In this document: in pieces, positions 546 to 9,362 of the stretch
Layout of the letters: each line of letters opens with the position of its first letter
Numbering within the stretch: position 1 is the first letter of the stretch
Virus record (IMG/VR): IMGVR_UViG_2663762627_000002
Length of the DNA: 9,362 nucleotides
From: a virus
Lineage: Duplodnaviria; Heunggongvirae; Uroviricota; Caudoviricetes
Reading direction: 5' to 3' (one strand)
The notes under the pieces: generated by a model
What the model was told of the DNA's origin: nothing
Database searches by the model: none
What the model saw: the letters and a program-made list of their open reading frames with translations, nothing else
Position numbers and translations under genes: made by a program

Positions 546-1859
546 TCAATCTTTTTTATCGGGATCAGGCTTCTTTTTAGGTAACTTCGGGGGCTTAACT
601 TGCTGATGACTTTGCGTTCGGCGCGTAAGCCAGGGATGGTCAGCTTTAGGTTTAACATAGTATTTTGAGCGTAAATCAATACGGGCATTATCCACTCGTT
701 CATGGACACTCTTTTCATCATCCAGTGGTATAGGCTCCGGGCCATCAACATACTTTTCCCAGCCCAGCGCTTTCCCGTCATACAGAACGTTAATTTCACC
801 GTCAAAGTTCTCGCATACAGTAACAACCGAATGCCTAAGTCGATATCCCCGGCCCTCACTGCGTACCTGAAACGCACTGCTTTTGTACTGGAAAGTGAGA
901 TTTTTAGACAGAACGCGCTTCGCCTGTAGGCTGAAGATATAACCCAGTTCCTCTTCAGAATGGTGCACATCAAGATGAGCATTATCAGTAGTACGAGGCG
1001 ACGTAGCGAACCGGTTGTTATAGGCTTCAATAAAGGTCGGCAACCATGCATTTGCTGTTTCAATATCACTGATATTCTGAAGCCGCATTTCTTTGACCAG
1101 CCTGTCCTGTAGTGTCTGATTGGCGCGCTCTACCCGCCCTTTTGCCTGCGGGCTGTTGGCATGGATTGGCTCGATGCCCAGTGTCTTTATCGCACGAGTG
1201 AACTGGGTCAGCTCACCTTCCCGCTCTGGGTTATTTACCCTGAATATACTGTGTCTATCAGAGTAGAGAGCGAGCGGTACGCCATGATCATTAAGGTAAC
1301 CCCGGAGGGTTTCCATGTAAGCCCGGGTTGTTTCAGCAGGCACAAAACGCAACGCCATCAACGCACTGGTGGCATCATCAATGAAAACGATCAGTGTACA
1401 TCTGGGGCCTCGATTTTCAAACCAGTCATGAGGTGAGCCATCAATCTGGATCAGTTCACCGTAAGATGGTCGTCGCATGCGGCGTTGATATATACGGGCA
1501 ATTTTACGACGGCGTTCACGCCATAACCCCTCTTCTATCATCCACTTTCTGAGAGTTTCAACGGATAAAGATAAACCGTGTATCTCGCGCAATTTTTCGC
1601 ACGCAAACGTAGGTCCAAAATCAGCGTAACGGCCTTTGAGGAGTGAAATTACTGTTGCTCTGAATTCAGTAGAAAAGGAATTATTAGGACGCTTTCCACG
1701 TCGGTGGGAAACCAGACCAGAAGGCCCTTCATTTCTATACCGTTGCACCAGACGTTTAACCTGCCGAATAGAAATGCCAATGCGTGCCGCAGCTTGTTCC
1801 TGAATAATCTGAAGTCGGTGGAGTTCCTTATGACTCATCGTAACAGTCTCTTTGATCAT
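546..1859 (-). CDS. DDE transposase with integrase (rve) catalytic core and N-terminal helix-turn-helix, 437 aa
   Basis: ATG start at 1859 with a G-rich stretch upstream. N-terminal HTH-like segment (ARIGISIRQVKRLVQRY). Catalytic motifs ...FIDDATS..., ...LYSDRHSIF..., ...NSPQAKGRVERANQTL... match the D, D, E pattern of retroviral-integrase-type transposases. Family assignment is from memory. Confidence 0.9.
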   Translation of the reverse strand: MIKETVTMSHKELHRLQIIQEQAAARIGISIRQVKRLVQRYRNEGPSGLVSHRRGKRPNNSFSTEFRATVISLLKGRYADFGPTFACEKLREIHGLSLSVETLRKWMIEEGLWRERRRKIARIYQRRMRRPSYGELIQIDGSPHDWFENRGPRCTLIVFIDDATSALMALRFVPAETTRAYMETLRGYLNDHGVPLALYSDRHSIFRVNNPEREGELTQFTRAIKTLGIEPIHANSPQAKGRVERANQTLQDRLVKEMRLQNISDIETANAWLPTFIEAYNNRFATSPRTTDNAHLDVHHSEEELGYIFSLQAKRVLSKNLTFQYKSSAFQVRSEGRGYRLRHSVVTVCENFDGEINVLYDGKALGWEKYVDGPEPIPLDDEKSVHERVDNARIDLRSKYYVKPKADHPWLTRRTQSHQQVKPPKLPKKKPDPDKKD

Positions 1860-2008
1860 GAAAAATCCCCCAGAGAATTGTCTGGGGACATTTTAGAATG
1901 GTTCAAAGGGGACATTACAGCTTGGTGTTAACAATAGCCTGCTTCTCCGTGCCTTTCGGCACGTAAGAGGCTAACCTACATGTGTCTAGCATGAAATTGG
2001 CCTCAGAT

Positions 2009-2045
2009 TAATGTTAAGCGTCTTGCAGGACGCGTAATGTTAACT
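2009..2045. repeat. Right-end inverted copies of the IS subterminal motif (TAATGTTAA at 2009-2017; GTAATGTTAACT at 2034-2045)
   Basis: These are reverse complements of the core of the 25-bp tandem units at 163-212, with similar spacing. Confidence 0.65.
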
Positions 2046-2193
2046 GGGGCTTTTCTCTATCTGCCGTTGGTGTCCATGCCCGAGGCAGATAGCCTCAAGC
2101 ACCCGCAGTCATTCTACTTAACTAAGATTTCCCCGCAAACCGTTTTTGTCCAGCACAGTAAATATCCAACTAAACCAATGGAGTTCGCTGTAT

Positions 2194-3525: not shown

Positions 3526-3882
3526 TTAAAAAATCAGAACGCCGTGCGGCCTCAACACCCGAAAGGCTTCTTTAAATCTCTGTCGCGAATCATCACGCCA
3601 GGCATCTTTATTCAGCCGTCCATATTTCTTTCCCATCCAGGCGTTATCACCAACACTCTCAAGATGCGGAGGGTCTAATACAACCATCGAAAAAGATGCG
3701 TCTGCAAATGATAATGCACGAAAATCTGCGATAATGTCAGGGCTGATAATCAAGCGTCTCCCATTGCGTAATGTGTATCCTTCTTTTCTGATATCGCTGA
3801 ATATCGCCCGTTCGTCAGACTTATCGAACCAGAACATGCGGCTGCCACAGCACATATCAAGAATGGTTGCCGGTGCACTCAC
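3526..3882 (-). CDS. Compact SAM-dependent DNA methyltransferase-like protein, 118 aa, possibly C-terminally truncated
   Basis: GTG start overlaps the stop of the upstream gene (GTGA at 3879-3882). Contains ILDMCCGS (motif I-like), VVLDPPH (DPPY/H-type motif of amino-methyltransferases) and LRPHGVLIF. Ends at TAA with no plausible continuation in any frame. Confidence 0.55.
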   Translation of the reverse strand: MSAPATILDMCCGSRMFWFDKSDERAIFSDIRKEGYTLRNGRRLIISPDIIADFRALSFADASFSMVVLDPPHLESVGDNAWMGKKYGRLNKDAWRDDSRQRFKEAFRVLRPHGVLIF

Positions 3883-4301
3883 TGCGCCACGTCCTGAAAA
3901 TTACCCTGATAGAAAGCCAGTATGCGCTGCATAACTTCGCTCTTCCGGCACTCGCGACAGATTATGTTTAGGCGACTGTCGTAGCGACGTATTTCTCCGT
4001 CAGGTGATGACCAGATAAGGTCCGGATCAACCACAGCAGGTTTCTTCACCTTTGCCCTCGAGAGTTTTTTGCGGGCGTTTTGCCAGTCCTTACGCGCCTG
4101 TTCAGAGGGGAATAACCCGTAGCCGGAGTTGTATACATCGCCACTGGCTACCAGCTCTCTGGCAAGAACGCTCATCAGATATCTAGTCGCACCTGTTTTA
4201 GCTTCCAGTTGCCGTAACGTCTCACGGCCGCTCTGGCGCACGAGTTCCACCACCTGCCATTTAATTTTTTCCCGCTCTTCTTGTGTAAAAACTTTTGCCA
4301 C
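3879..4301 (-). CDS. Hypothetical protein, 140 aa, translationally coupled to the downstream methyltransferase-like gene
   Basis: GTG start at 4301 preceded by AAGGGGGA. Its stop overlaps the start of the 3526-3882 gene. Basic C-terminal half; no recognisable motif. Confidence 0.6.
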   Translation of the reverse strand: MAKVFTQEEREKIKWQVVELVRQSGRETLRQLEAKTGATRYLMSVLARELVASGDVYNSGYGLFPSEQARKDWQNARKKLSRAKVKKPAVVDPDLIWSSPDGEIRRYDSRLNIICRECRKSEVMQRILAFYQGNFQDVAQ

Positions 4302-4341
4302 AAGTCCCCCTTAAAATTACCTCATGACCTGAAATCAACAC

Positions 4342-5361
4342 TTATCCTCTGAAACCAGGCGGAATTTCTGTATCCGGTTCAGAAATATGATTAACACAAC
4401 GCTGTACAGGTGAACGTCCCAGGCGGATGACCAGTTCGTCCCATTTTTCGCGGAGCTTTGACGGGCTCATGATGTTTTTTACCCAGAATGGATCTCGCTG
4501 AACCCGACCAAACATTTCGCAAATTTGTCTGTGGCTTCTGCCATCCAGCATCCGCATTGTGCGCACGTCATTGGCCCAGGCAGTCCAGTTAGGCTCTTTT
4601 GGTCGCATGATCTCGCCATCATCACTGGCTGCCTGTTCGTAGAGACCCACGATCCGCCCCCAGATCCACTGCGCACACGCCAAATCCTCCCTGCTACCCC
4701 ACTGGCGTTTTTTCGCACTAAACACAACCGCGTCGGAGTTCCGGGTTAAAAAATCCTGTTCAGTCGTCTGCGGGTCCGGTTGCGAAGCTTCCGGACGAAA
4801 AGTGTTTTTATTCTCTGTAGTAATCTCTGTTGTATTCTCTGTAAGATCATCAGGCCATTTTGACCCGATGACATTGGGTCGTTTTGAACCAATGGAGCGT
4901 TTCATTTTGACCTCTTCCATCGTGTCATTTTGACCTGATGGAGCGGCGCATTTTGAACCGATGGATTCGCTCAATTTGCCACCATCTAAAAGCTCGCTCC
5001 CATAGTTGATCGTGTAGAAATTGGTCATATCGCGCTTTGATTTATTGAGCTTTTCACAACGCAAAAGCCCCAGCGTTTTCAGACTTGCAAACGCGCGCTT
5101 TAACGTTGACTCTGACCAGAATGGGAACTGTTCCAGCCATTGTTCCGTTGTGTTATAAATCCAGCGAACACCATCACATTCCATGCCGGAGTTGGTATCT
5201 CTCAACCAGTAGTGCAGTTGTTGCAAAACAATGGCTTCGTTTAAGCCAATTTTCATTGCCAGCTGCGTGTTTATAACCAGTGGGCGTTCAGCAAAAAGAA
5301 GGCTCATAATTCCATCCAGCTTTTTGTTGGTATTGCTGTCGATACGCAAGTTTGAAAGCAA
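4342..5361 (-). CDS. Phage replication initiator (replisome-organiser / O-like) with an internal origin; 339 aa as listed, true start probably the ATG at 5307 (322 aa)
   Basis: N-terminal winged-helix-like domain (LNEAIVLQQLHYW...TLKRAFASLKTLGLLR). Central low-complexity linker encoded by DNA iterons. Sits in the lambda O position downstream of the cro-like gene. The track start at 5361 is TTG; ATG 5307 would overlap the upstream gene by 20 bp. Confidence 0.8.
   Translation of the reverse strand: MLSNLRIDSNTNKKLDGIMSLLFAERPLVINTQLAMKIGLNEAIVLQQLHYWLRDTNSGMECDGVRWIYNTTEQWLEQFPFWSESTLKRAFASLKTLGLLRCEKLNKSKRDMTNFYTINYGSELLDGGKLSESIGSKCAAPSGQNDTMEEVKMKRSIGSKRPNVIGSKWPDDLTENTTEITTENKNTFRPEASQPDPQTTEQDFLTRNSDAVVFSAKKRQWGSREDLACAQWIWGRIVGLYEQAASDDGEIMRPKEPNWTAWANDVRTMRMLDGRSHRQICEMFGRVQRDPFWVKNIMSPSKLREKWDELVIRLGRSPVQRCVNHISEPDTEIPPGFRG
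4809..4844. repeat. Three tandem 12-bp repeats (TATTCTCTGTAG / TAATCTCTGTTG / TATTCTCTGTAA) next to the iterons; candidate origin-flanking element
   Basis: Direct repeats with 12-bp period immediately downstream (in the gene's direction) of the iteron array. They encode TTENTTEITTEN in the protein. Confidence 0.7.
4855..4965. repeat. Five iterons, ~23-bp period, consensus CATTTTGA(A)CC-N-GATGG; putative replication origin inside the initiator gene
   Basis: Copies at about 4856-4870, 4879-4895, 4903-4917, 4926-4941 and 4948-4963. They encode the SIGSK-type repeats of the protein linker. The arrangement matches ori-lambda inside gene O. Confidence 0.8.
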
Positions 5362-5809
5362 TTGCTTTTTCTATAAGTTCGTCAGTTTCACGATCCACTA
5401 CGGCAGGATCAGCAAAAAGCAGTCCGGACTCCACCACATCGCCATATTCTTTGTTTAACCCGGCGATCATGCACGTGATGCTTTTTCCGTCAGTAATTTC
5501 ACGATACAACCTGAAATCATTAATCCGGATAGCCTCCATAATTGCAGGCACTAGCGCCGTGAACTTTTCACGCTTATCCCTGGTGTCGATAGCCTTCCAG
5601 CGTTCAAATATCTTCACTCGATTAACGCCAAGCGCTCGCTGATCAATCGCGCCACCTTCATATGTGACACGCTGAACATCGATGTTCGGGCGCTCTTTCA
5701 AAGCCCAGAATGCTTCAGTGATTAATATCGTCGCCTGCTCCTGTGTCATTCCTGGTCGACATATCCAGGCATCCAGAGCCTCACGAGCCTGTTCAGGAGT
5801 GATTTTCAT
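5288..5809 (-). CDS. Hypothetical early protein, 173 aa, in the CII/YdaT position downstream of the cro-like gene
   Basis: ATG at 5809; overlaps the 3' end of the cro-like gene by 17 bp and the track start of the initiator. Function inferred only from position. Confidence 0.65.
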   Translation of the reverse strand: MKITPEQAREALDAWICRPGMTQEQATILITEAFWALKERPNIDVQRVTYEGGAIDQRALGVNRVKIFERWKAIDTRDKREKFTALVPAIMEAIRINDFRLYREITDGKSITCMIAGLNKEYGDVVESGLLFADPAVVDRETDELIEKAIAFKLAYRQQYQQKAGWNYEPSFC

Positions 5810-6023
5810 TGTTCAACCGCCCCGCCCGCTTCGTCTTACGATATTCATCATAAACTTTGGGATCATACTGAAGCTCCCCGCCAGATGCCTCCTGTAGACG
5901 CATCGCGCGACCTTCGGGAACTAAATCCCCTTTCCAGCTATAAAGCGAAGCCAAACGAATACCTGCTGCTTGTGCAAGTTTTGTTTTTGAACCGAAATAC
6001 AAAAGAGCGTCAGTTTTAAGCAT
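5793..6023 (-). CDS. Cro-like small HTH DNA-binding protein, 76 aa (YdaS-like)
   Basis: ATG at 6023 with AAAGGTG 8 nt upstream. HTH-like segment GSKTKLAQAAGIRLASLYSWKG. Divergent from the repressor gene across an operator-bearing intergenic region. Confidence 0.8.
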   Translation of the reverse strand: MLKTDALLYFGSKTKLAQAAGIRLASLYSWKGDLVPEGRAMRLQEASGGELQYDPKVYDEYRKTKRAGRLNNENHS

Positions 6024-6106: not shown

Positions 6107-6514
6107 ATGGAAACAAAAAATTTAACTATCGGCGAACGCATCAGGTATCGTCGGAAAAACCTCAAACACACCCAAAGGTCTCTTGCTAAAGCCCTGAAAA
6201 TCTCCCATGTGTCTGTATCACAATGGGAACGGGGTGATAGTGAACCTACAGGGAAGAACCTTTTTGCCCTCAGCAAAGTATTGCAATGCTCACCAACATG
6301 GATTCTATTTGGCGATGAAGACAAGCAACCAACACCACCTGTTGAGAAGCCAGTTGCCTTATCCCCCAAAGAACTAGAGCTCCTTGAGCTGTTTAATGCA
6401 CTGCCAGAATCAGAACAGGATACCCAGCTCGCCGAAATGCGAGCTCGAGTAAAAAACTTCAATAAACTCTTTGAAGAATTACTAAAAGCCCGTCAGCGGA
6501 CAAATAAAAGATAA
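6107..6514 (+). CDS. XRE-family (CI-like) prophage repressor, 135 aa, without a peptidase/autocleavage domain
   Basis: N-terminal HTH (LKHTQRSLAKALKISHVSVSQWERG). No Shine-Dalgarno and an operator palindrome ends 3 bp before the ATG, suggesting a leaderless transcript. C-terminal half is short and coiled-coil-like, as in RacR-type repressors. Confidence 0.85.
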   Translation: METKNLTIGERIRYRRKNLKHTQRSLAKALKISHVSVSQWERGDSEPTGKNLFALSKVLQCSPTWILFGDEDKQPTPPVEKPVALSPKELELLELFNALPESEQDTQLAEMRARVKNFNKLFEELLKARQRTNKR

Positions 6515-6680: not shown

Positions 6681-6836
6681 ATGGATACTATCGATCTTGG
6701 CAACAACGAATCTCTGGTGTACGGCGTGTTTCCAAACCAGGACGGCACGTTCACCGCAATGACGTATACCAAAAGCAAAACGTTTAAAACCGAAAATGGT
6801 GCCCGTCGCTGGCTGGAAAGAAACTCAGGTGAGTGA
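6681..6836 (+). CDS. Small early-left protein, 51 aa (MDTIDLGNNESLVYGVFPNQDGTFTAMTYTKSKTFKTENGARRWLERNSGE); resembles YdaF-type prophage proteins (from memory)
   Basis: ATG at 6681 with GAGG 5 nt upstream. The track ORF 6603-6836 starts at an upstream TTG. Confidence 0.6.
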   Translation: MDTIDLGNNESLVYGVFPNQDGTFTAMTYTKSKTFKTENGARRWLERNSGE

Positions 6837-6837
6837 T

Positions 6838-6966
6838 ATGGATTTCGACACAATCATGGAAAAGGCTTACGAAGAATACTTCGAAGGCCTTGCCGAAGGC
6901 GAAGAAGCTCTCAGCTTCAGTGAGTTTAAACAGGCGCTTTCCAGTTCGGCAAAATCTAACGGCTGA
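6838..6966 (+). CDS. Small acidic early-left protein, 42 aa (MDFDTIMEKAYEEYFEGLAEGEEALSFSEFKQALSSSAKSNG); YdaG-like by position
   Basis: ATG at 6838 lies 1 nt after the stop of the preceding gene, with AGGTGAG upstream. Below the size cutoff of the ORF track. Confidence 0.5.
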   Translation: MDFDTIMEKAYEEYFEGLAEGEEALSFSEFKQALSSSAKSNG

Positions 6967-6995: not shown

Positions 6996-7214
6996 ATGCA
7001 GAAACGAGAACCCGTCATCATCGCGCCAGACTATACCGATGATGAACTTTATGAGTGGATGCGCCAGAAAATTAATGCAGCGCAGGATCTGAAATGGGCT
7101 AATGAAGCCAGGGCTAAGCAGGCTGAAAATCTGTCCGCTCTGGAGCAGGATATCACCAATCTGGAAAAAGCAGCGGCATTAAGCATTGCCAGAATGATTA
7201 CATACCCGCGTTAG
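6996..7214 (+). CDS. Hypothetical early-left protein, 72 aa (possible Kil-like by position only)
   Basis: ATG at 6996 with GAGGAA 5 nt upstream. Helical, charged sequence with no recognised motif. Confidence 0.6.
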   Translation: MQKREPVIIAPDYTDDELYEWMRQKINAAQDLKWANEARAKQAENLSALEQDITNLEKAAALSIARMITYPR

Positions 7215-7239: not shown

Positions 7240-7612
7240 GTAATTAAGGAGTTCTCCACGGGTGAGGTGGAGTGCGTGCGCCGGACACGGGTGCGCATCC
7301 GGAACTGACAGTTTACTGAAAGGATATTTCCCTGAAAAGTCAGACCATAACGCGAAAGCGCACGGCGAGGTAGCTGGTTCATAGATAGCCTGTCGTTAAA
7401 TTTTCGTCGACCGTGCGCTTCCGGTTGTGGCAACCCGCGAAATGGCGCGGCGGTAAGTATGGCGGGGTTATTCCTTCCCCGTTGAGGACACCGGGTTGTC
7501 AGGTTGACCATACGCTTAAGTGACAACCCCGCTGCAACGCCCTCTGTTATCAATTTTCTGGTGACGTTTGGCGGTATCAGTTTTACTCCGTGACTGCTCT
7601 GCCGCCCTTTTT
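7240..7612. other. GC-rich, ORF-poor, hairpin-dense segment; candidate structured ncRNA or unrecognised element
   Basis: No plus-strand ORF of 60 aa or more across ~400 bp. Many stems, including CTCCAC/GTGGAG (7254-7272), CGC-GAAA-GCG (7351-7360), GCGCACGG/CCGTGCGC (7358-7365 / 7411-7418) and GGGTTGTCA/TGACAACCC (7493-7529). Visibly higher GC than the flanks. Confidence 0.3.
7570..7612 (+). terminator. Terminator-like structure (GGCGG ... CCGCC followed by CTTTTT)
   Basis: Stem 7570-7574 / 7602-7606 encloses a sub-hairpin and is followed by a T5 run at 7608-7612. The large internal loop makes this uncertain. Confidence 0.35.
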
Positions 7613-7617
7613 AAAGT

Positions 7618-7763
7618 GAATTTTGTGATGTGGTGAATGCGGCTGAGCGCACGCGGAACAGTTAAAACCAAAAACAGTGTTATGGGTGGATTCTCTGTAT
7701 CCGGCGTTAATTGTTAACTGGTTAACGTCACCTGGAGGCACCAGGCACTGCATCACAAAATTC
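7618..7763. promoter_or_regulatory. Control region bracketed by a perfect 13-bp inverted repeat (GAATTTTGTGATG 7618-7630 / CATCACAAAATTC 7751-7763), with nested dyads
   Basis: Inside are the dyads ACGTTAA/TTAACGT and CCTGG/CCAGG, two GTTAAC hexamers, and a copy of TTCTCTGTA (7691-7699) that also occurs in the origin-adjacent 12-bp repeats. Ends 19 bp before the ATG at 7782. Confidence 0.4.
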
Positions 7764-7781
7764 ATTGTTGAGGACGCGATA

Positions 7782-7970
7782 ATGAAAACGTTATTACCAA
7801 ACGTTAATACGTCTGAAGGTTGTTTTGAAATTGGTGTCACTATCAGTAACCCAGTATTTACTGAAGATGCCATTAACAAGAGAAAACAAGAACGGGAGCT
7901 ATTAAATAAAATATGCATTGTTTCAATGCTGGCTCGTTTACGTCTGATGCCAAAAGGATGTGCACAATGA
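7782..7970 (+). CDS. Small hypothetical protein, 62 aa (MKTLLPNVNTSEGCFEIGVTISNPVFTEDAINKRKQERELLNKICIVSMLARLRLMPKGCAQ)
   Basis: ATG at 7782 with GAGGA 7 nt upstream. Stop TGA overlaps the start of the next gene (ATGA at 7967-7970). Confidence 0.6.
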   Translation: MKTLLPNVNTSEGCFEIGVTISNPVFTEDAINKRKQERELLNKICIVSMLARLRLMPKGCAQ

Positions 7971-8158
7971 ATTCAGCATTTGTGCTTGTTCTGACAGTTT
8001 TTCTTGTTTCCGGAGAGCCAGTTGATATTGCAGTCAGTGTTCACAGGACAATGCAGGAGTGTATGACTGCAGCAACCGAACAGAAAATTCCCGGTAACTG
8101 TTACCCGGTCGATAAAGTTATTCACCAGGATAATATCGAAATCCCGGCAGGTCTTTAA
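7967..8158 (+). CDS. Small exported or membrane-anchored protein, 63 aa, with N-terminal signal-peptide-like segment and three Cys (MNSAFVLVLTVFLVSGEPVDIAVSVHRTMQECMTAATEQKIPGNCYPVDKVIHQDNIEIPAGL)
   Basis: ATG at 7967 with AAGGA upstream; translationally coupled to the preceding gene. Hydrophobic N-terminus followed by a hydrophilic, Cys-containing domain. Confidence 0.6.
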   Translation: MNSAFVLVLTVFLVSGEPVDIAVSVHRTMQECMTAATEQKIPGNCYPVDKVIHQDNIEIPAGL

Positions 8159-8250
8159 AACAGTTCCGTAATAAATATCCGGTTTCATTCTTATATGCCA
8201 GCAATGGCAGGGATTTGTTCATCCTTAAATCTGTCATGAGGTTAAAACAA

Positions 8251-8838
8251 ATGAGTAAAGTCTTTATTTGCGCCGCTATTCCTGACGAACTGGCAACAAG
8301 GGAAGAAGGCGCTGTGGCTGTAGCCACAGCCATTGAAGCTGGCGACGAACGCCGTGCTCGAGCAAAATTTCACTGGCAATTCCTGGAACATTATCCGGCT
8401 GCTCAGGACTGCGCTTATAAATTTATTGTCTGCGAGGATAAACCTGGCATACCCCGCCCTGCCCTCGATTCATGGGATGCTGAATATATGCAGGAAAACC
8501 GCTGGGATGAGGAGTCTGCTTCTTTTGTCCCGGTTGAGACTGAATCCGATCCGATGAACGTCACTTTTGACAAGCTGGCCCCTGAAGTACAGAACGCTGT
8601 CATGGTTAAGTTCGACACATGTGAAAACATCACCGTTGATATGGTTATTAGCGCACAGGAATTGTTGCAGGAAGACATGGCAACATTCGACGGACATATC
8701 GTTGAAGCGTTGATGAAAATGCCAGAAGTTAACGCCATGTATCCGGAGCTTAAGTTGCACGCCATTGGGTGGGTTAAGCATAAATGTATTCCTGGTGCTA
8801 AATGGCAAGAAAGCTGGTTTACTCGACCTGTACCTTAA
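8251..8838 (+). CDS. Acidic hypothetical protein, 195 aa, no recognised domain
   Basis: ATG at 8251 with GAGG 9 nt upstream; the track ORF starts at TTG 8215. Rich in Asp/Glu. Last gene before the att/int remnant. Confidence 0.75.
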
Positions 8839-8951
8839 ACCAGGAAGAAAACGAAGCCGTTTGCCTGTGGCTGAAAGAGACTTACCCCGACGCAGTAGAG
8901 TTTTTACCACTTGGCGATCTCTTCCCTGGTGCAAACAAAGCGCTGACCGAA
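8814..8951 (+). pseudogene. ~140 bp fragment encoding [46 protein letters not shown], resembling an internal segment of the rRNA m5C methyltransferase RsmF (NOL1/NOP2/Sun family)
   Basis: The frame opens just after a TAA and closes after divergent sequence. The STC...EENE motif is characteristic of the family. Near-identity to E. coli RsmF is recalled from memory, not computed. Overlaps the 3' end of the 195-aa gene in another frame. Confidence 0.45.
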
Positions 8952-9028
8952 CCATCATGTAACCCTCTGTTTTCGTGCATTGAAACGGCGGTGATACAAC
9001 TTTCGTGTATCACTTAGGACGCTAATCA

Positions 9029-9170
9029 ATGTCGCATCTTATGCTTTCCCGTCACGGGATCTGGTACTACCGTAGGGTCTACCTGACACCTCGGAAACGC
9101 CGTGAAATTCGTATTTCTCTTCGCACACGTTCCAAACGTGAAGCCTTGCTCCGTGTGGAGAAATATCTCA
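9029..9170 (+). pseudogene. Truncated tyrosine-integrase gene: N-terminal arm-binding-type domain only (MSHLMLSRHGIWYYRRVYLTPRKRREIRISLRTRSKREALLRVEKYL...)
   Basis: Pattern R-x-G-x-W-Y...SLRTRSKREA matches the N-termini of lambdoid and Rac-type integrases (for example ...GETWYASF...SLGTKDKRQA..., from memory). The reading frame continues to 9274 but is overlapped from ~9168 by a convergent gene, so the integrase is cut after about 47 codons. Confidence 0.5.
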
Positions 9171-9362
9171 CCTCACAACCTTTCCACTGCGTTCCGCAGT
9201 CCATCCCGGCACACACTGCAACTCCGTCTGGTCAGAAAACGGTAACAGCTTCTCCTGCTGGCGTGGCCCGTTGAGACAGACGGCGACCAGCACACCACCC
9301 GGACGCAACAGGGAAAAAGCCCGCAGGATATGCCGGATATCCTGCCCGTGGCTGAACGGCGG
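9168..9362 (-). CDS. 3' end of a convergent gene (partial; C-terminal 64 aa ...PPFSHGQDIRHILRAFSLLRPGGVLVAVCLNGPRQQEKLLPFSDQTELQCVPGWTAERSGKVVR); putative SAM-dependent methyltransferase C-terminus
   Basis: Manual minus-strand translation from the window edge to TGA (plus 9168-9170). PPF and LRPGGVLV resemble motifs of small class-I methyltransferases. Absent from the ORF track because it has no start codon in the window. Confidence 0.4.
   Translation of the reverse strand, partial: PPFSHGQDIRHILRAFSLLRPGGVLVAVCLNGPRQQEKLLPFSDQTELQCVPGWTAERSGKVVR

Follow-up and report, generated by a model that had tools for sequence, protein, structure and literature searches.

The two small overlapping genes at 7782-8158 of the window, the whole 9,362-nt stretch of DNA that was analysed, are almost certainly dicB and ydfD, the pair of small genes that ends the dicBF operon (ydfABC-dicF-dicB-ydfD) of a Qin-type Escherichia coli lambdoid prophage. 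A 1,001-nt query around the pair (7400-8400) shows 100% nucleotide identity with E. coli K-12 MG1655, C600, J53, and many other strains, and the K-12 annotation names the two products 'cell division inhibition protein DicB' (WP_000854559.1) and 'lysis protein YdfD' (WP_001083297.1). Genetic definition of dicB dates from the 1980s and that of ydfD from 2016. The pair is already known, and the copy described here has the same sequence as the K-12 type genes. A previous reading made from the sequence alone (the sequence-only reading) had left the product unrecognised and its function open. Both genes are named and characterised, and the novelty of the pair is refuted because the DNA is 100% identical to K-12 dicB-ydfD, which is clear homology to characterised phage proteins.

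Identity of the gene pair

Family models support the assignment of both genes. DicB matches Pfam PF05358 with 136.8 bits (cut-off 27), its residues 1-62 aligning with model positions 1-62, and NCBIfam NF049927 with 132.8 bits (cut-off 100). YdfD matches Pfam PF07358 (DUF1482) with 91.1 bits (cut-off 25), residues 4-61 aligning with model positions 1-57. NCBIfam holds no model naming YdfD, and a sequence search of solved structures returned no match for either DicB or YdfD at E <= 1. The limits of the two ORFs given by the sequence-only reading are exact, as are the four-base overlap between them and the ribosome-binding site assigned to each gene (Table 1).

A longer ydfD of 81 aa, starting at ATG 7913, was considered and rejected, as the Pfam match then begins at residue 22 and the 18 added residues fall outside it. 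This longer product would carry a third and a fourth cysteine. The supported start is therefore the one at 7967.

Table 1. Positions of the annotated features in the window
Feature	Position	Strand	Description	Evidence or remark
Small SAM methyltransferase gene	3526-3882	-		Lost in K-12 Qin
DUF977 gene	3879-4301	-		Lost in K-12 Qin
Replication-protein-like gene	4342-5361	-	339 aa	Lost in K-12 Qin
YdaT-family gene	5288-5809	-		Lost in K-12 Qin
dicC	5793-6023	-	Cro-like regulator	Annotated WP_000920568.1
dicA	6107-6514	+	CI-like repressor of dicBp	WP_000448564.1 in K-12, ATCC 8739
ydfA	6681-6836	+		Transferred from K-12 / ATCC 8739 annotation; DUF1391 match
ydfB	6838-6966	+		Transferred from K-12 / ATCC 8739 annotation
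ydfC	6996-7214	+		Transferred from K-12 / ATCC 8739 annotation
DicF sRNA	7556-7607	+	Antisense regulator of ftsZ	Rfam RF00039, 76.7 bits (gathering score 48), full model 1-52
Shine-Dalgarno-like GAGGA	7770-7774	+		8 nt 5' of dicB ATG
dicB	7782-7970	+	62 aa, cell-division inhibitor DicB	K-12 identity, WP_000854559.1, PF05358, NF049927
Shine-Dalgarno-like AAGGA	7954-7958	+	Inside dicB 3' end	8 nt 5' of ydfD ATG
ATGA start/stop overlap	7967-7970	+	ydfD ATG and dicB TGA	Read from sequence
ydfD	7967-8158	+	63 aa, lysis protein YdfD, DUF1482 / YebW family	K-12 identity, WP_001083297.1, PF07358
RecE-like exonuclease gene, 5' part (ydfE region)	8251-8812	+	About 187 codons	Annotated 825 aa in ATCC 8739
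rsmF, internal fragment	8813-8951			100% identity
Integrase upstream region and first ~67 codons	8952-9230		Normally beside ffs	99.3% identity
Class I SAM methyltransferase gene fragment	9231-9362		On thousands of F-type plasmids	98.5% identity

Conservation and translational coupling

Of the 5,426 complete E. coli genomes, 3,982 carry the 377-nt pair at a coverage of at least 80%, with a maximum of six places per genome. It is also carried by isolated, viable lambdoid phages including Tritos, mEp460_ev081, HannyBb, and PhiR42_1. The search for YdfD homologues gave 226 clusters, and the named ones among the matches listed belong to Escherichia or Shigella. A divergent version is present in phage PPompW_132418: its DicB homologue shares 61% identity with DicB, and the 62-aa product of the next gene shares 48% with YdfD. 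This pair also overlaps by 4 nt, in the form GTGA, the start codon having changed. The arrangement of dicB and ydfD is more than chance, since the unit is conserved in genomes and the overlap is kept in the divergent phage. Moreover, the persistence of the overlap through the change of start codon, from ATGA to GTGA, speaks for selection on the overlap itself.

The ATGA overlap would couple the translation of ydfD to that of dicB, so that synthesis of the lysis protein would always be accompanied by the division block that keeps lysis in check. The presence of a Shine-Dalgarno-like sequence of its own (AAGGA) in front of ydfD weakens the case for coupling.

Operon context and control

The pair forms the distal end of the dicBF operon, which DicA represses, and is not a stand-alone cassette. 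The genes dicC, dicA, ydfA, ydfB, and ydfC are colinear with those of K-12 and ATCC 8739. The small RNA DicF lies 175 nt 5' of dicB, and the same relative position is annotated for it in phage Tritos. The sequence-only reading had seen a two-gene, host-modulating unit in the early-left lambdoid region; the tight overlapping pair is real, but it forms the distal part of a longer operon and not a cassette of its own.

The promoter dicBp, which sits 5' of ydfA and is similar to lambda PL, is kept off by the CI-like repressor DicA (PMC10448788). Its derepression is attributed to the Qin-encoded antirepressor Rem, urea, high temperature, and stochastic switching in a subpopulation. In the same study, DicF is processed out of the polycistronic transcript that also carries dicB, and a ydfABC-dicFB-ydfD transcript was detected with none reaching into ydfE (PMC10448788).

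Promoter scanning of the window gave 3 promoters against 4.5±2.3 in shuffled controls, and dicBp was not picked out. The terminator scan gave 7 against 3.3±2.0 in shuffled sequence, rated no higher than the controls, and the DicF terminator was not picked out. A weak terminator-like hairpin, TGCCAGCAATGGCA, with a T-rich tail is seen at 8196-8209 (+), 38 nt past the ydfD stop. This hairpin would be consistent with the published result that no transcript into ydfE was detected (PMC10448788), and is only a hint because the scan counts are no higher than those of the shuffled controls.

DicB protein and function

DicB is a basic protein (pI 9.0, net charge +2.5) with three cysteines (C14, C45, and C60). 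The single-sequence AF2 model consists of one long helix at residues 28-55, and is weak (mean pLDDT 71.9, with residues 1-14 below 50). A small product, basic or helical, had been expected from the first gene; the basic character is confirmed, and the helical one is half supported, for residues 28-55 in this weak model.

DicB, the same protein as the one encoded here, binds MinC, and its inhibition of ManYZ is MinC-dependent (PMC6832061, PMC4967827). The DicB complex reaches the septal ring via ZipA, where MinC depolymerises FtsZ and filaments are formed (PMC6832061, PMC4967827). Through the same interaction with MinC, DicB inhibits the ManYZ inner-membrane proteins and blocks infection by lambda and other ManYZ-dependent phages; the efficiency of plating is 0.04, described as about 100-fold resistance, and deletion of ydfD has a minimal effect on this phenotype (PMC6832061). 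DicB cannot do without its N-terminal segment, whereas its C-terminal tail matters less (PMC4967827). The comparison with the homologue of PPompW_132418 agrees with this, as conservation is seen over residues 1-35 and divergence at the C-terminus.

Two of the three functions offered by the sequence-only reading therefore describe DicB. The division inhibitor corresponds to the MinC- and ZipA-dependent loss of the FtsZ ring, and superinfection exclusion corresponds to the action of DicB on phages using ManYZ (PMC6832061, PMC10448788). The interpretation was thus partly right, by luck.

YdfD protein and function

YdfD is acidic (pI 4.7) and contains two cysteines, C32 and C45. Three cysteines had been ascribed to this second product, but it is DicB that has the three. 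In the alignment of 77 sequences, comprising the protein of the window and 76 near-full-length homologues, C32, C45, and the motif EQKIPGNCYPVDKVI are nearly invariant.

Expression of YdfD leads to rapid, near-complete lysis, which needs ongoing division and is prevented by co-expressed DicB or SulA (PMC8835842). In the same single study, YdfD binds the MEP-pathway enzyme IspG directly, and ispG overexpression or HMBPP rescues the cells (PMC8835842).

Published mechanism

In published experiments on the identical proteins, the operon is silent under DicA repression of dicBp and is released by Rem, by some stresses, or stochastically. Once made, DicB is targeted in its complex through ZipA to the septal ring, where the FtsZ ring is stripped and filaments result. 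By the same MinC interaction, ManYZ is inhibited and the DNA entry of lambda-like phages falls about 25- to 100-fold. YdfD causes dividing cells to lyse; it reportedly binds the cytoplasmic enzyme IspG and starves the cell of the isoprenoid (undecaprenyl) carrier. Co-expression of DicB or SulA stops this lysis since active division is required.

Alternative readings of the pair

The least probable alternative, to which hardly any weight is given, is that the two ORFs are chance frames or that the true gene is encoded on the other strand. ORFs of 111 aa (7583-7918) and 71 aa (7973-8188) are indeed present on the minus strand. However, they were rejected as real genes, because neither has a Pfam match and no gene is annotated at either of them in the records examined (K-12, ATCC 8739, and phage Tritos), whereas the plus-strand products belong to curated families and their phenotypes have been published. 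A toxin/antitoxin or toxin/immunity module, in which one partner, DicB or YdfD, would serve specifically to neutralise the other, is very unlikely, even though two overlapping small genes encode products of opposite charge (pI 9.0 and 4.7) and co-expression of DicB abolishes YdfD lysis (PMC8835842). The unrelated division inhibitor SulA protects equally (PMC8835842), and protection therefore runs via the block of division and not via binding of YdfD. Moreover, DicB acts on a host target of its own, MinC, and is strongly toxic (PMC4967827), direct interaction of DicB with YdfD is not reported in the literature, and Pfam and NCBIfam returned only DicB and DUF1482. A type II toxin-antitoxin pair was rejected from the literature on the same grounds, as SulA replaces DicB and DicB is not harmless (PMC8835842, PMC4967827). 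The toxin/immunity proposal of the sequence-only reading holds in so far as DicB cancels YdfD lysis, but the effect is indirect and the supposed immunity partner is toxic.

Export or membrane anchoring of YdfD is unlikely but carries more weight than the preceding two readings. YdfD would then attack the envelope from the membrane or periplasm, in the manner of a holin-like peptide or a single-gene lysis protein, and its target would not be a cytoplasmic enzyme. The N-terminus is very hydrophobic (AFVLVLTVFLV, 11 aa; Kyte-Doolittle 3.17 over residues 4-14) and is followed by S-G. Read by eye, this region is compatible with a hydrophobic core of 7-15 residues and a small-x-small motif, and the V-S-G after the run would meet the -3/-1 requirement of signal peptidase. 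In addition, the near-invariant C32 and C45 could make a periplasmic disulfide, and the phenotype is lysis (PMC8835842). Against this stands the composition of the N-terminus in the family, M-N-(S/T)-(A/T). None of the 77 aligned sequences has a basic n-region, that is, Lys or Arg, ahead of the run, the protein of the window has no K or R before residue 27, and neither is among the common residues of the alignment there, so that the positively charged n-region sought in a test for a Sec signal peptide is absent. The run is only about 10-11 residues long, which is too short for a membrane-spanning helix, and is shortened further by Asn14 in many members; it is also rich in beta-branched residues (Val, Thr). 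A single-pass anchor would call for some 18-20 apolar residues in a row in a helix, and the best 19-residue segment (5-23) holds E17, P18, and D20 and has a Kyte-Doolittle value of only 2.0.

The AF2 model of YdfD, built on a 30-sequence alignment, is compact (mean pLDDT 85.1, pTM 0.62). It places a strand at residues 4-12 paired with a strand at 18-26, so that the best anchor segment is modelled as two strands and not as a helix, followed by a helix at 29-38 and three short strands. The N-terminal strand is modelled with confidence (block pLDDT 83-91) within a beta-beta-alpha-beta fold, by a method that ignores membranes and from an alignment that is shallow (at least 70% identity). A stable, soluble complex of YdfD with cytoplasmic IspG has also been purified, and the rescue by ispG overexpression or HMBPP points the same way (PMC8835842). 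YdfD is accordingly predicted to be a small soluble domain in the cytoplasm, with the hydrophobic N-terminus buried as a beta-strand and not serving as an export signal, and such a domain fits a cytoplasmic target. The signal-peptide-like N-terminus of the sequence-only reading is hydrophobic, but the likeness is superficial, and the exported or membrane location derived from it is unsupported by the alignment and the model.

Two further points concern the N-terminus. Masuda et al. in 2016 reportedly called it a transmembrane domain, and the C-terminal 42 residues alone are said to have been still toxic in their hands. The 2016 data may disagree with PMC8835842, in which every N- or C-terminal truncation of YdfD weakens lysis. 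The AF2 model, with the N-terminal strand in the core, fits the truncation data of PMC8835842 better.

Comparison with known systems

The K-12 Qin (Kim) cryptic prophage has the same order of dicC, dicA, ydfA, ydfB, ydfC, dicF, dicB, ydfD, and exonuclease, and its DNA is identical over 7400-8400. It differs in the genes lying at 3526-5809, of which K-12 Qin retains only a ydfX remnant. The window is of the ATCC 8739 type of Qin and not of the K-12 type because the YdaT-family, replication-protein-like, DUF977, and methyltransferase genes lost in K-12 are still present. In contrast to K-12, which has an IS2 fragment and intQ at the corresponding place, the exonuclease gene of the window breaks off at 8812, where foreign fragments follow.

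The phages Tritos, mEp460_ev081, HannyBb, and PhiR42_1 show 93-100% nucleotide identity over the pair and the order dicF-dicB-ydfD-exonuclease-xis-int. In Tritos, the full order is cI, three small genes, DicF, dicB, ydfD, exonuclease, xis, and int. These phages are complete, and in them the pair is flanked by the early-left small genes on one side and by a full exonuclease gene on the other (2,472 nt in Tritos), whereas the window lacks the downstream part.

Lambda Kil is also a small PL-operon peptide that blocks cytokinesis via FtsZ assembly in a ZipA-dependent manner (PMC3961180). No sequence relationship between DicB and Kil was found, DicB matching only PF05358, and DicB acts through MinC. 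Kil is reported to work without a need for MinC. Moreover, lambda has no partner corresponding to YdfD.

YdfD is small, phage-borne, and lytic like the single-gene lysis proteins, which include E of phiX174 (target MraY), A2 of Qbeta (MurA), and Lys of phage M (MurJ). As with those proteins, the supply of cell-wall precursor is blocked and murein is not degraded, and growing, dividing cells are needed (PMC8835842). The likenesses of DicB to Kil and of YdfD to the lysis proteins are functional, and neither is a family relationship.

YebW, the chromosomal paralogue in K-12, belongs to the same DUF1482 family and is encoded by a 192-nt gene, and some sources name YdfD homologues 'YebW family'. 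Unlike ydfD, yebW has no adjoining dicB; it is flanked by yebV and pphA and sits two genes past rsmF (E. coli E2865, L005 5177-5368). To our knowledge, no function has been published for yebW.

Downstream tail and decay of the prophage copy

Colinearity with any Qin-type prophage stops at 8812, where the homology to ATCC 8739 ends. The three pieces of the tail (8813-9362) abut without gap or overlap, and the integrase fragment at about 9029, in the second piece, comes from an unrelated island. Among complete E. coli genomes, none is colinear with the tail, and scans of 185,579 representative genomes for two of its junctions gave no exact match. The mosaic is either an unusual rearrangement or an artefact of assembly or construction, and the prophage copy in the window is decayed and rearranged. 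The pair had been placed in an accessory slot directly before the integrase. This placement fails, as intact relatives have the exonuclease (about 825 aa) and xis between ydfD and int, and the integrase fragment of the window is foreign.

At the other end of the window, a full-length match to the sok/hok-leader RNA (RF01794, 104.1 bits) lies at 1933-2104 (-) with no hok-like ORF after it. A gene for an ISNCY-family transposase (437 aa, 546-1859 (-)) begins about 75 nt downstream of this match, and the insertion sequence may have removed the toxin gene that followed it.

Significance

The discovery value of dicB-ydfD here is low, as both genes have published mechanisms. The useful result is the correct label, namely the immunity and early-left region of a Qin-type prophage, encoding DicF, DicB, and YdfD. 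In addition, the placement of the YdfD N-terminus, as a soluble strand or as a membrane segment, bears on IspG as the direct target.
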